A stretch of DNA of 53,117 bases from a virus (taxonomy: Duplodnaviria; Heunggongvirae; Uroviricota; Caudoviricetes): IMG/VR virus record IMGVR_UViG_2718218452_000009. One strand, given 5' to 3'. Shown here in pieces: positions 1 to 6,000 of this stretch (its first letter is position 1; every line of letters starts with the position of its first letter). Made by a program: the position numbers.

Positions 1-3000
1 TCATTTGTCGATTTCAATTTTGTCCCATTCCCGTCCACGGCTGTCTCTATACCGCGCCGCCATTGAATCTGATTTATGCCCGAGAAGACGTTGAGCAAAT
101 TTATCGCCAATCTGGTTCCGGTATAGCCTCGCTGACAGGCTACGCAGTTCATGGAATGTTGGCGGGTTTCCATCAAATGAGAGTCCAGATGCATTTCTCG
201 CCTTTGTAAAATACTTTGATACTGTTTTCGGGGAAAGAGGATCGTAATGCTTTGATGCGATTATAGTTTCACTGCTGCTGGCCTCCCTGCATTTCTGTAG
301 TGTATCAGCCAATGAGATATTGAGCGCGTCAATCGTTAGCGTTAGCGGAATGGCGAGTTTAGCCCCTGTTTTACTCTGTTCAATGTGAAGATGGTTGTCG
401 TTTATGTCTGACCATTTCATTCTGCACAAATCGCCGACTCTCTGCCCTGTAACGACGGCCAAATCCATCGCCAGCCTTAGCCAGATAGGGAGAGGTTCGG
501 CTGCATGGTAAATCTCGACATACTCATTAGCTGTCAGCCTTGAGCGCCTTACTTCTGACTTTGCTGTACGGGTTGCTGTTACCGGATTCGTTGCCACATG
601 CCCCTCGGCTATTGCTTCACGAAAAACGTCAACAAGGGTTGACCTGATTAATTTTGCGGAAGCTGCTTTACCTTCTGCTACGTAGGTGTTTAGCATTGCT
701 GCCACTTCTTTCGTTGATATGTCAGTGAGCGGTTTGTCCGGCAATTTTCTTCGGATTGCCCTGATTTTGCTGGCGTAGTCGAGTAGAGTTTTCGGCCTGA
801 TCCCCCTTTCGGTGAGGATTGTTTCATATCGGTCAAGCCACACATGAAGAGTGATTGCGTCACCGCCTTTAATTCTGTCTATTAGTGATTTGCGTCCGCT
901 GTCTGAGAGTAACTCAATATTGGCCTGTATTGCTTCAGTGATTGCTATCCTCCTGTCTCGGCCTAAACCAAACTCTTTACCCGTCCTTGGGTCCCTGTAG
1001 CAGTAATATCCATTGTTTCTTATATAAAGGTTAGGGGGTAAATCCCGGCGCTCATGACTTCGCCTTCTTCCCATTTCTGATCCTCTTCAAAAGGCTACCT
1101 GTTACTGGTCGATTTAAGTCAACCTTTACCGCTGATTCGTGGAACAGATACTCTCTTCCATCCTTAACCGGAGGAGGGAATATCCTGCATTCGCGCACCC
1201 ATCGACGAACTGTTTCAAGGCTTCTTGGGCGTCGCTGGCGAGCGTTCCACTCCTGAAGTGTCAAGTACATCGCAAAGTCTCCGCAATTACACGCAAGAAA
1301 AAGCCGCATTGATGCGGCGATGGTAGGTCTGGATATCATTGAGCAATGAACAGGCCTCACCGAGTGTGAGGCGGTGTTATTTCATGGTTAGTCCTTGCGT
1401 AGCTCGCTGATTCTTCTGTAAGTCTCTGGTGCTTTGTTTCCGTGTATCTTCATTTCAGACTTCAACAGAGCAACGAGGGAATCCCATTCGTTGAGGATTC
1501 CTTTGAATGCCGGAACGCGCTTTGCAACCTTGTTGAATGAATCTCTGATTTCTGGAATCTGCTCAACAAGTGCAACGCATCGTCTGAAATCGGCTGCGTC
1601 ATGGGGAGCGCCGAAGTGATGACCATAGATATTCTTTTTCAGTCCACATGCGATTGAGGCAAGAGTTGCGCTACTGATGCCAACATCGCCAGTCGATTGC
1701 CATTTCAAAACCTTCATAGCCAAATCTGACATTTCTTGTCTCCAATAAAAAAAACCGCCATCAGGCGGCTTGGTGTTCTTTCAGTTCTTCAATTCGAATA
1801 TTGGTTACATTGTTTTCATATATGAATAAATAAATTAGCTTTTTTCGTTGCCTTCGCGTTCTTTATTAATTTTGACAAAATCGTTTTTACCACGCTCTCC
1901 AAATGCGTCTTTAGAGTCGTTGTATCCGCAATCGCAGCACACATAATCATCAGACCATCCACGCATTGTTTTTTCTTTTGCAATATTTCCAGAACCGCAT
2001 TTTGGACAAGACATATCACTACCTCCAAAGCATGAGAGAGATGACAACGTAACATTGATTGGAGATTAACAATAGATTGCTGATGTAAAAGATATGTATA
2101 AGCTTAGCTATCAAAGAGGAGGTTCTGGTAGTTGCATCCAGTCGGTTACATTGCGACTCTGTGTTTCGAAAAATTCATCACCATTGCGGACAATATCGAA
2201 AAACTCTCCGTCTCGATATTGCGCATAAAGAACGAATGCGCCATCACATAAAATAATTACGTGCTGACCATCATCTGGCATTAGCTCACTACAGCTTATC
2301 CAACCATCCGGAGTTACCGGAAGCGAGAACGGCAGCACATCTCTGTGAACAAGTTTTTGCTGTGACAGGTTATCCAGAACTTTCTGTACTGCTGCATCAC
2401 CGAATACACCAAGCGCATCTGCCATAACTCCTACAACCTGATAAGCCTCAGCGCATACCGTGGATAAACCATCCGGAATTACCGGAGAGTTGCCGGGTTC
2501 TTTAATGTGCAAGCGAGGCTCACCATCTTTTGGTTCAGGCCACTGGCGCTCCATGTTGATCTTCAATTTATCTTCCATAGCAGCGGTAATTTCAGCATCG
2601 CTGATGCCAGCACGGCGCTGTGCATCCCACAACAGGAAATGCATATCAGCCCACTCGCTGAGATCGTCTGGTTCGGCTGCGGCTTCCAGAGCCTCTTTTG
2701 AGAGGTGTTTCAGTGGACCAATGGGGCCAACGCAGCCAAATGTGGAGTCAGACCATTTGGCATGCTCGTGGCGAATCAGTTCGCGTTCCAGTGATGCCAG
2801 TGCAATTCGTGCCAGTTCCATTTGTTCGCCACGAGTAAGCCCGTTTTCAAGCGGATTTTTAATGAACAATTCAATACGTTCTTTGGTAATAGTGGTCATT
2901 TGTTAGTCCTTAAAGTGCTAGTTGCAATTGCATTTCAAAGCGGTCGCGTTGTTCACAATACGCAAGAGAACCAGGGCTATTGTGTGCCTCAATCCGTTCT

Positions 3001-6000
3001 ACCATTAATGCTGCGCGTGTCTCTTTACTTGCAGGTGCATAAGCCCCAGACCAGGCTTTATCAATACCGATGTTTCGAGCGACGTTCGTACTATCTGCGC
3101 TGGCTAAGGGTAATTTTGTGAATATCAGCGGATTTAACATGCGCAATCCATGTAGTTTCGTAACCGGCTGACCATGCCCATCAACAATGTGACGAATCAG
3201 GTCTTTCATTCTGGCTACCGCAAGAGTTGGGCGCTTTACGTCATAGTCGCCACAACTACCGATAGCCACTCGCGGAAACTCATTGCACAAATGAATAAAT
3301 CGCTCGTCACTTTCATTCATGTGCCACACTGGAACGCCAGCTAGTTTTCCGTGAGGCCACTCATTCAGAAGCGCATCATTTTCCTCCTCTCCGCCATCAA
3401 TAACATCCGGGATAATGGCAAAATCGAATCCTGGGTGATTCTTCCAGCGAGCAACAAACTCGTAGTAATCGCTCCAGTCGATTTTGTTTTTGCCAGCTGC
3501 TTTCCAGGCGGTGAATGCACCGTTGTCCAGCGCGAACGACTGACAGTATTCAGCCGCGAGATTGATCTGGCCTGAATGCGCAAAACTGATAAACGCATGT
3601 CGCCCTTTCCATGCTCTCATTGCGCACGTATCAGGAGTAATAGGCCCACCGTGGTAGTGAATCATCTCACTCTCCTTTGATGCGAATGCCAGTAGCGCGG
3701 ATTGCATCGATGACTTCAGAAACTTTGTATGCCATTACCGTTTGGTAATCATCGTGAAAATCTGTTCGATGAAGCATGCTGCTACGTTCCGGGAGCAGTA
3801 TTTCCCGCGCTTCCAGTTCTGCAATGCGCTTTTTTGCTGCTTCCAGTTCATCCAGTAATTCCAGCACGGTAGCCGGATTAGCCTTGGCAACAAAATCCCG
3901 GACTGGCTTACAATCAATCTCCGCAATGGGTTGATACGATGTGTAGCCATGCTGTCTTGTATAACTACCGTGACGAATAACGAAAAAATCACCATTTATT
4001 TTTTTAGCCTGCCACTTATCTTCACCGGCTTTCTCTGCCGCTTCACGCAGTGCCTGAGAGTTAATTTCGCTCACTTCGAACCTCTCTGTTTACTGATAAG
4101 CTCCAGATCCTCCTGGCAACTTGCACAAGTCCGACAACCCTGAACGACCAGGCGTCTTCGTTCATCTATGGGATCGCCACACTCACAACAATGAGTGGCG
4201 GATATAGTCTGGTAGTTCAGACGACGCATTTTTATTGCTGTATTGCGCTGTAATTCTTCAATTTCTGATGCTGAATCAATGATGTCCGCCATCTTTCATT
4301 AATCCCTGAATTGTTGGTTAATACGCTTGAGGGTAAATGCGAATAATAAAAAAGGAGCCTGTAGCTCCCTGATGATTTTGCTTTTCATGTTCACCGTTCC
4401 TTAAAAACGCCGTTTAACATGCCGATTGCCAGGCTTAAATGAGTCGGTGTGAATCCCATCAGCGTTACCGTTTCGCGGTGCTTCTTCAGTACGCTACGGC
4501 AAATGTCATCGACGTTTTTATCCGGAAACTGCTGTCTGGCTTTTTTGATTTCAGAATTAGCCTGACGGGCAATGCTGCGAAGGGCGTTTTCCTGCTGAGG
4601 TGTCACTGAACAAGCCCCATGTCGGCAAGCATAAGCACACAGAATATGAAGCCCGCTGCCAGAAAAATGCATTCAGTGGTTGTCATACCTGGTCTCTTTC
4701 ATCTGCTTCTGCTTTCGCCACCATCATTTCCAGCTTTTGTGAAAGGGATGTGGCTAACGTATGAAATTCTTCGTCTGTTTCTACTGGTATTGGCACAAAC
4801 CTGACTCCAATTTGAGCAAGGCTATGTGCCATCTCAATACTCGTTCTTAACTCAACAGGAGATGCTTTGTGCATACCGCCTCCCGTTTATTATTTATCTT
4901 CTCAGCCAGCCGCTGTGCTTTCAGTGGATTTCTGATAACAGAAAGGCCGGGAAATACCCAGCCTCGCTTTGTAACGGAGTAGACGAAAGTGATCGCGCCT
5001 ACCCGGATATTATCGTGAGGATGCGTCATCGCCATTGCTCCCCAAATACAAAACCAATTTCAGCCAGTGCCTCGTCCATTTTTTCGATGAACTCCGGCAC
5101 CATCTCGTCAAAACTCGCCATGTACTTTTCATTCCGCTCAATCACGACATAATGCAGTCCTTCACGCTTCATACGCGGGTCATAGTTGGCAAAGTACCAG
5201 GCATCTTTTCGTGTCACCCACATGCTGTACTGCACCTGGGCCATGTAAGCCGATTTTATGGCCTCGAAACCACCGAGCCGGAATTTCATGAAATCCCGGG
5301 AGGTAAACGGGCATTTCAGTTCAAGGCCGTTGCCGTCACTGCATAAACCATCCGGAGAGCAGGCGGTGCGCATACTTTCGTCGCGATAGATGATCGGGGA
5401 TTCAGTAACATTCACGCCGGAAGTAAACTCAAACAGGGCTCTGGCGTCGTTTTCGTACTGTTTTCCCCAGGCCAGCGCTTTAGCGTTAACTTCCGGAGCC
5501 ACACCGGTGCAAACCTCAGCAAGCAGGGTGTGGAAGTAGGACATTTTCATGTCAGGCCACTTTTTTCCGGAGCGGGGTTTTGCTATTACATTATGAACTT
5601 CTGACGCTGTGATGACACCGAGCCGTAATTTGTGCCACGCATCATCCCCCTGTTCGACAGCTCTCACGTCGATCCCGGTACGCTGCAGGATAATGTCCGG
5701 TGTCATGCTGCCACCTTCTGCTCTGCGGCTTTCTGTTTCAGGAATCCAAGAGCTTTCACTGCTTCGGCCTGTGTCAGTTCTGACGATGCGCGAATGTCGC
5801 GGCGAAATATCTGGGAACAGAGCGGCAATAAGTCGTCATCCCATGTTTTATCCAGGGCGATCAGCAGAGTGTTAATCTCCTGCATGGTTTCATCGTTTAC
5901 CGGAGTGATGTCGCGTTCCGGCTGGCGTTCTGCAGTGTATGCGGTATTTTCGACAATGCGCTCGGCTTCATCCTTGTCATAGATACCAGCAAATCCGAAG

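Follow-up and report, generated by a model that had tools for sequence, protein, structure and literature searches.

The stretch analysed here, virus record IMGVR_UViG_2718218452_000009 of IMG/VR (Caudoviricetes; 53,117 nucleotides [nt] in all, hereafter the window), holds at its left end the early-left (exo-xis, int–exo) arm of a lambdoid Escherichia coli prophage of about 53 kb, read on the minus strand. Two adjacent genes in this arm, open reading frame (ORF) A and ORF-B, are our subject. From profile comparison and structure modeling, ORF-B is a predicted stand-alone homologue of the DpdA-like DNA guanine transglycosylases. ORF-A is a very common EaA-type prophage protein and, judging by its conserved residues, very probably an active nucleoside triphosphate (NTP) pyrophosphohydrolase of the MazG type. 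The two probably do not form a unit. Their features are as follows.

2111..2899, minus strand: ORF-A, 262 amino acids, EaA-type protein made up of an N-terminal helix region, DUF550, a linker and DUF551 (ORF, Pfam)
2489..2776, minus strand: DUF550 (PF04447) domain, ORF-A residues 42-137 (Pfam)
2117..2305, minus strand: DUF551 (PF04448) domain, ORF-A residues 199-261 (Pfam)
2150-2275, minus strand: hypervariable core of DUF551, ORF-A residues 209-250 (comparison of homologues)
2910..3665, minus strand: ORF-B, 251 amino acids, stand-alone ("singleton") phage DpdA-like protein with a triosephosphate isomerase (TIM) barrel, predicted DNA guanine/7-deazaguanine transglycosylase; key residues D47, D87, H115, G136/G139, H172 and D191
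3672..3676, minus strand: Shine-Dalgarno sequence AGGAG of ORF-B, 6 nt 5′ of the ATG at 3663-3665 (sequence)

Both ORFs are real genes and not chance ORFs, since their database relatives are so numerous: at least 8000 for ORF-A, and for ORF-B at least 7855 at 90% clustering, with 813 clusters at 50% identity. The initial annotation had given these coordinates and lengths, had placed the genes in the early-left region and had credited the 251-amino-acid protein with a well-placed ribosome-binding site. All of this holds. The strand, which was omitted there, is minus; the binding site is the AGGAG listed above; and the minus-strand gene order is that of an early-left arm (int, xis, ..., Eag, ORF-A, ORF-B, Ea22-like, TraR/DksA, ..., exo, bet, gam, kil, cIII). 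A longer reading of ORF-B, 265 amino acids from an ATG at 3707, was rejected: homologues have 248-252 amino acids and start with MIHYHG, the Prokaryotic Genome Annotation Pipeline (PGAP) calls the 251-amino-acid form, and the extra codons would fall inside the Ea22-like gene upstream.

No family could be recognized for the 251-amino-acid protein in the initial annotation. As far as Pfam and NCBIfam go this stands, as neither gave a match (in Pfam none even at E ≤ 10, PF01702 included), and the RefSeq label is "hypothetical protein" in every genome row shown. However, PHROGs, profile-profile comparison and structure all point to the phage DpdA-type DNA guanine transglycosylases. ORF-B falls within phrog_887, "queuine tRNA-ribosyltransferase" (E 2e-103), as does the validated DpdA of phage CAjan (E 8e-96), whose deletion abolishes the replacement of about 32% of G by dPreQ0 (PMC6884629). 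BLASTP aligns the two proteins directly at 25% identity over 152 amino acids (E 3e-9), pairing LDNGAF of ORF-B with LDSGAF of CAjan and ASADST with YSCDSS. When an alignment of the ORF-B family (53 members, 35-94% identity) was compared with one of the CAjan family in hhalign, the two matched over 174 columns with 99.1% probability (E 9e-19).

Closer relatives are known as well. ORF-B is 92.8% identical to a protein of Salmonella phage SPN3UB (YP_007011024) and 68% identical to one of Enterobacteria phage SfI (YP_009147480); identity is 36% for HK106 and 36% over 220 residues for Salmonella phage 7-11, and an identical copy is present in a phage converting to Stx1a (Shiga toxin [Stx]). Hutinet et al. 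2019 (Supplementary Data 1, PMC6884629) enter SPN3UB, SfI and HK106 as phages with DpdA and without a pathway for the base preQ0. With a near-orthologue already on that DpdA list, ORF-B belongs, like ORF-A, to a catalogued family.

The predicted fold agrees with this assignment. An AlphaFold2 model made from the family alignment has eight strand-helix (beta-alpha) units, with a predicted local distance difference test score (pLDDT) of 92.2 and a predicted template modeling score of 0.90. Against the predicted viral structures of BFVD it gave 28 matches at E ≤ 1e-3, mostly either unnamed phage proteins or proteins annotated as queuine tRNA-ribosyltransferase, the label of most of the named ones; just beyond that threshold, rank 30 is taken by a protein of Vibrio phage nt-1 and rank 33 (E 3.6e-3) by the DpdA-like protein of Cellulophaga phage phiST. 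D47, H172, S189, D191 and S192 do not vary in any of the 53 homologues; for D87, H115 and G136, conservation is 90% or more. In the model the conserved residues lie at or just past the C-terminal ends of strands 3, 4, 5, 6, 7 and 8, and the profile alignment sets D47 against D63 of CAjan and D191 against D206.

These positions can be compared with those of the bacterial enzyme. The DpdA of Salmonella Montevideo cannot do without its acid/base, D95, or its nucleophile, D256; D130 and H181 hold the base, whose 7-substituent is read by a Gly-rich loop that follows strand 6 (PMC10164549). The order of D95, D130, H181, the Gly loop and D256 is mirrored in ORF-B, and by analogy we infer a strand-by-strand correspondence of the two proteins, with like roles for the residues.

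Among known systems, ORF-B is most like the singleton DpdAs of SPN3UB, SfI, HK106 and 7-11, which have about 235-252 amino acids; the phages themselves carry no preQ0 genes, and the SfI gene lies in the same exo-int region. The protein shows no difference of substance from these; what sets this copy apart is its place in an E. coli lambdoid prophage by torS, adjoining an EaA gene. With the DpdA1 of the Queuovirinae (CAjan gp35, 9g) it shares LD(N/S)GAF, the His after strand 5, the Gly loop, (K)xHG and S(A/C)DS(T/S), and a DpdB-like partner is neither needed in the CAjan/9g type nor present for ORF-B. CAjan DpdA differs in its length (306 amino acids, with N- and C-terminal extensions) and in lying inside a folE-queD-queC-queE cluster, which ORF-B lacks. 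The likeness to the bacterial DpdA of the Salmonella Montevideo Dpd system and to tRNA-guanine transglycosylase (TGT, PF01702) is one of TIM-barrel base-exchange chemistry, with the catalytic elements in the same order on successive strands. ORF-B, in contrast, is about 150 residues shorter, has no detectable sequence match to them, and lacks both the structural Zn site and the DpdB ATPase partner on which bacterial DpdA depends; nor does Foldseek single out TGT. As to such a partner, the neighboring genes are Ea22-like, TraR/DksA, EaA and Eag. Four adjacent gene products were run against PADLOC and do not match its Dpd-system models, and neither these four nor ORF-A or ORF-B matches any PADLOC defense-system model.

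If ORF-B exchanges bases, the incoming base has to come from somewhere. E. coli strain 13E0767 has, next to torS, a near-identical prophage whose PGAP annotation is the same and includes no que genes; in about 150 related viral loci, tblastn with FolE, QueD, QueC, QueE and YhhQ of CAjan gave no match within 5-6 kb. Because the phage-encoded preQ0 pathway (FolE, QueD, QueE and QueC) of groups 1 and 2 is absent, ORF-B belongs in the DpdA-only "group 3", which comprises 76 phages whose modification status is unpredictable (PMC6884629). Supply of preQ0 by the host is feasible, since the dpdA of 9g alone in E. coli gave 790 dPreQ0 per 10^6 nt in plasmid DNA and the complete preQ0 pathway is present in the hosts of enterobacterial phages that have DpdA only. 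In the temperate Caulobacter phage DMCA (5705-6726), a gene for QueD (6-carboxytetrahydropterin synthase) is followed by an abutting, 37%-identical homologue of ORF-B annotated as "hypothetical"; this adjacency ties the ORF-B clade to 7-deazaguanine metabolism. The arrangement in DMCA is a minimal QueD and DpdA pair without the rest of the pathway. In our literature search we found no paper on DpdA in lambdoid phages or on exo-xis with queuine, and for DpdA with temperate phages or host preQ0 no title pointed to a functional study of this clade; DNA modification by the temperate-phage singletons is at present a prediction.

For ORF-A, the initial annotation had suggested a family that combines a putative dATP/dGTP pyrophosphohydrolase with a DUF551-type domain, and the Pfam search made to check this found both: PF04447 (dATP/dGTP pyrophosphohydrolase, formerly DUF550) at E 1e-41, with 141.5 bits against a cutoff of 23 and 96 of the 97 profile positions covered, and PF04448 at E 2.9e-17, with 63.7 bits against a cutoff of 22. 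PGAP likewise names it "dATP/dGTP pyrophosphohydrolase domain-containing protein." All of its listed relatives have both domains, and the EaA proteins of P22 (eaA) and mEp390 are 79-86% identical to it over the DUF550 part. It shares with these lambdoid EaA proteins the early-left "ea" position and with thousands of E. coli prophages the DUF550-DUF551 architecture, and differs mainly in the DUF551 cassette and a few N-terminal variants. A mention of EaA in a paper on P22-like abortive infection proved to be a false match, in the reference list only. The label of possible nucleotide metabolism that the initial annotation had put on both genes thus suits ORF-A, whereas ORF-B is better called a DNA base-modification enzyme.

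The biochemical name of the domain derives from two proteins, a fusion of DUF5664 with DUF550 in Acinetobacter phage SH-Ab 15497 and the MazG-like MazZ of cyanophage S-2L (PMC12884076, PMC8342488), the only ones for which hydrolysis of dGTP/dATP to the deoxynucleoside monophosphate and pyrophosphate is established. In Pfam the SH-Ab 15497 gene product consists of PF18909 (DUF5664) and PF04447; it aligns with ORF-A over 71 residues, at 34% identity. MazZ (7ODY) is the best PDB sequence match of ORF-A, a weak one. With residue roles taken from S-2L MazZ (PMC8342488), the predicted metal ligands of ORF-A are E69, E72, E82 and D85, the base contact is D92, and R118 is the catalytic, transition-state residue. 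E69, E72, E82, D85 and R118 are unchanged in a three-way alignment of ORF-A with the SH-Ab 15497 enzyme and MazZ, D92 aligns with the Asp that contacts guanine in MazZ, and none of the six varies among 32 E. coli homologues. Because the metal-ligand, guanine-contact and transition-state residues are all kept, ORF-A is very probably active, presumably on dGTP/dATP or a related purine NTP. It has PF04447 in common with the SH-Ab 15497 protein and, with that protein and MazZ, the MazG-type ExxE...ExxD ligands, the guanine-contact Asp and the catalytic Arg, but carries DUF551 in place of the N-terminal PF18909. The phage has neither purZ nor datZ and therefore no Z-genome system.

DUF551 is the part of ORF-A in which its relatives differ most strikingly. 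Among the same 32 homologues the mean pairwise identity is 15.8% in the DUF551 core versus 98.5-98.7% in the DUF550 domain and the linker; the core exists in 22 distinct versions, often unalignable, between the conserved flanks WISCSERMP and THWMPLPEPP. In these comparisons it behaves like a swappable cassette. It is also the sole confidently modeled part of the protein, with five beta strands at a pLDDT of about 80-89. Foldseek gave no significant match with the ORF-A model; there were just local Tudor/SH3-like matches to the DUF551 part, on which we do not rely.

Drawing on the homology, the fold, the conserved catalytic residues, the lack of que genes and an adjacency that is not obligatory (see below), we favor, with moderate confidence, a reading in which these are two independent accessory genes, ORF-B being a DpdA-type base-exchange enzyme supplied with host preQ0 and ORF-A a MazG-like pyrophosphohydrolase. 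We infer the substrates, the timing of expression and the biological effect as follows. Both would be early-left (exo-xis) accessories, probably transcribed from pL in lytic growth. D191 of ORF-B would attack a target deoxyguanosine of the double-stranded phage DNA at C1′, with D47 as the general acid/base; guanine would leave, and a 7-deazaguanine base would be put in after replication. That base would most likely be preQ0 from the host FolE-QueD-QueE-QueC pathway, since the prophage has no synthesis genes of its own. We picture the outcome as a sparse, low-level mark that would blunt some restriction systems. In ORF-A, the MazG-like and presumably all-alpha DUF550 would cleave pyrophosphate from dGTP/dATP, or from a related purine NTP, and leave the monophosphate; it is fused to a small, beta-rich DUF551 that may vary like a swappable specificity cassette.

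A number of observations weigh against this reading. ORF-B has no sequence or profile match to any solved TGT or DpdA structure; its searches against PDB chains by sequence and by profile, and those with the CAjan-family profile, gave nothing meaningful. It does not match the bacterial DpdA model of PADLOC, which CAjan DpdA itself matches weakly (E 1.3e-3). In the PDB, Foldseek with the ORF-B model returned generic TIM barrels only, the best being TrpA (E 1.8e-3), with TGT at rank 46 (E 0.063). A direct fold link between ORF-B and TGT is not demonstrated by Foldseek; it comes from the literature and from that weak match of CAjan DpdA. ORF-B lacks the structural Zn site that TGT and bacterial DpdA have: its five scattered Cys are conserved nowhere in the 53-member alignment and form no CxCxxC. 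The authors of the DpdA catalogue themselves state that the gamma-proteobacterial singleton cluster needs study and may have diverged in function, and phage 7-11, the only DpdA-only enterobacterial phage tested and so the closest relative with data, had no dPreQ0 and just 50 dADG per 10^6 nt, or some 0.02% of its G (PMC6884629). Modification by ORF-B, if any, may hence stay at trace level, and protection by it is presumptive. On the side of ORF-A, the characterized SH-Ab 15497 enzyme has the extra PF18909/DUF5664 domain that ORF-A lacks, and a stand-alone DUF5664 protein, from Arthrobacter phage Wayne, by itself hydrolyses dATP, dGTP and dUTP; for DUF550 on its own, the best support for activity comes from MazZ, which is more distant. 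The structure model of ORF-A is poor (pLDDT 47.9). It is helical over residues 23-119, but at a pLDDT below 50, and its first 200 residues are uninformative, as the homologues that could be used hardly differ over this stretch.

Several of these points would also fit an ORF-B of DpdA lineage whose job has changed, so that it uses another base (preQ1 or an ADG precursor), has a tRNA target, or serves as a glycosylase or base-swapper on foreign or host DNA, with no preQ0 self-protection. The singleton gamma-proteobacterial DpdAs do form a separate cluster, the one flagged for divergence; the DNA of 7-11 holds dADG in place of dPreQ0; DpdA2 enzymes are promiscuous, accepting preQ1, preQ0 and CDG; and, with the bacterial models unmatched, the validated DpdA1 is only 25% identical. 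However, the catalytic Asp pair and the base-binding positions are kept in 53 diverse members, which argues for the same chemistry, the homologue in DMCA is still coupled to QueD, and every DpdA enzyme tested to date inserts 7-deazaguanines into DNA. We consider a changed job unlikely, though deserving of some weight.

In the queuosine pathway of E. coli, QueF normally takes free preQ0 on to preQ1. This would favor the view that ORF-B is a conserved passenger that leaves no measurable DNA modification in its host, as is the case for Mycobacterium phage Orion, which is DpdA-only and unmodified (PMC6884629); the 0.02% of G modified in 7-11 points the same way. The host of Orion lacks a preQ0 pathway, however, whereas E. 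coli has one, and a passenger would hardly be expected to have a large family with invariant catalytic residues or an allele that is at least 99% conserved in 188 of the 203 complete E. coli genomes with ORF-B. We find the passenger view rather improbable. More speculative still, and of low probability in our estimation, is that the temperate enterobacterial stand-alone DpdA clade, far from being a weak version of the Queuovirinae type, is a functionally distinct base-exchange enzyme, which would place sparse, motif-specific 7-deazaguanine marks, drawn from the host queuosine-precursor pool, on lambdoid (including Stx-converting) genomes, or would act on the nucleic acid of competitor phages or of the host; EaA with its DUF551 cassette would then be an unrelated specificity-swapping factor.

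The initial annotation had grouped the two genes in one block, which implied a single function, and here the evidence did not bear it out. Its appeal is plain, as the genes are codirectional, with the ORF-A start 10 nt past the ORF-B stop, in tight packing. One could imagine a two-gene module in which a dGTP/dATP pyrophosphohydrolase tunes the purine pool to favor 7-deazaguanine modification, much as DUF550/MazZ enzymes serve the base-replacement pathway of Z-genome phages (PMC8342488, PMC12884076). We therefore looked at adjacency in viral contigs with distinct downstream sequence, counting those loci in which DUF550 lies directly downstream of the ORF-B homologue. Where ORF-B identity is at least 98%, DUF550 is adjacent in 15 of 39 loci (about 38%); the count falls with ORF-B divergence, to 5/28 at 90-98%, 0/26 at 75-90% and 1/20 below 75%, and SfI and many other phages have the ORF-B homologue without DUF550. 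Among 5426 complete E. coli genomes, the intact pair is found in 129 and ORF-B in 203, while a query with both genes (2111-3665) was matched at least in part in 2566, nearly all through ORF-A. DpdA chemistry, moreover, is post-replicative, takes place on DNA and uses the free base as substrate (PMC10164549), and for these reasons we see no obvious part for dGTP hydrolysis to play. On the co-occurrence data we reject a conserved module of DUF550 and DpdA, and we judge a purine-tuning pair very improbable. ORF-A and ORF-B are probably not a unit, and their adjacency looks like ordinary, lineage-limited lambdoid mosaicism.

Returning to two independent accessories, an active ORF-B would mean that the DNA of lambda-like prophages in pathogenic E. 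coli bears a base modification that has gone unnoticed, derived from a precursor of host tRNA modification. Such a mark could affect the passage of phages across restriction barriers between strains, the behavior of phage DNA in nanopore and restriction analyses, and detection by defenses that sense 7-deazaguanines, such as Dag glycosylases. Placing the formerly unassigned ORF-B as a stand-alone DpdA-type enzyme could also improve annotation in the 203 genomes that carry it, where the rows shown read "hypothetical protein." The gain for ORF-A is smaller, an existing call confirmed together with the cassette-like variability of DUF551.

Expression of the pair can be approached from consensus scans and from what is known of lambda. 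On the minus (coding) strand, no sigma-70-like promoter was found between 1000 and 5200, and the traR-ea22-ORF-B-ORF-A-eag run is flanked by two terminator-like hairpins, known from the scans only:

4352..4370, minus strand: terminator-like hairpin upstream of the run
1752..1771, minus strand: terminator-like hairpin downstream of the run

By analogy with lambda, the run would be reached in lytic growth by N-antiterminated readthrough from pL. Over the same interval terminator-like hairpins are overrepresented (13 versus 3.8 ± 1.8 expected) and sigma-70-like promoters underrepresented (2 versus 6.4 expected).

The neighboring genes in the arm are these, with the excisionase gene and two small genes between the integrase gene and ORF-A.

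1-1074, minus strand: integrase
3667..4074, minus strand: Ea22-like protein, 135 amino acids, upstream neighbor of ORF-B (Pfam PF13935, E 2.6e-17; PGAP)
4071-4292, minus strand: TraR/DksA zinc-finger gene

The stop codon of the Ea22-like gene (3667-3669) falls between the AGGAG and the ATG of ORF-B. This gene is context only, outside any function shared with ORF-A or ORF-B.

The window aligns over its whole length to the 13E0767 prophage except for two insertion sequence-like insertions and a diverged head region. The insertions, of about 1.3 kb each, lie in the replication/nin region at about 13565-14855 and 15783-17087; each contains a 108-amino-acid ORF and a 233- or 295-amino-acid ORF on the minus strand, and they resemble insertion sequences. 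At the right end of the window, 47768-53117 matches the 13E0767 prophage up to the gene adjoining genes for an EspJ-family type III secretion system effector and an NleG effector. Because of this match, the prophage is an effector-carrying lambdoid prophage of a strain like enterohemorrhagic or enteropathogenic E. coli; the annotation of the 13E0767 prophage shows no stx genes in the late region that matches.

Two further genes touch on restriction. At 7787-7966 on the minus strand, a 59-amino-acid ORF is the counterpart of a 13E0767 gene that PGAP calls "antirestriction Ral family protein," so that a classical restriction-alleviation gene would accompany the predicted DpdA in this phage. The product of 1835-2047 on the same strand, a 70-amino-acid zinc-ribbon protein named Eag by PGAP, has a sub-threshold similarity to the Lar restriction-alleviation family PF14354 (E 1.5e-4, 22.4 bits versus a cutoff of 28.6).

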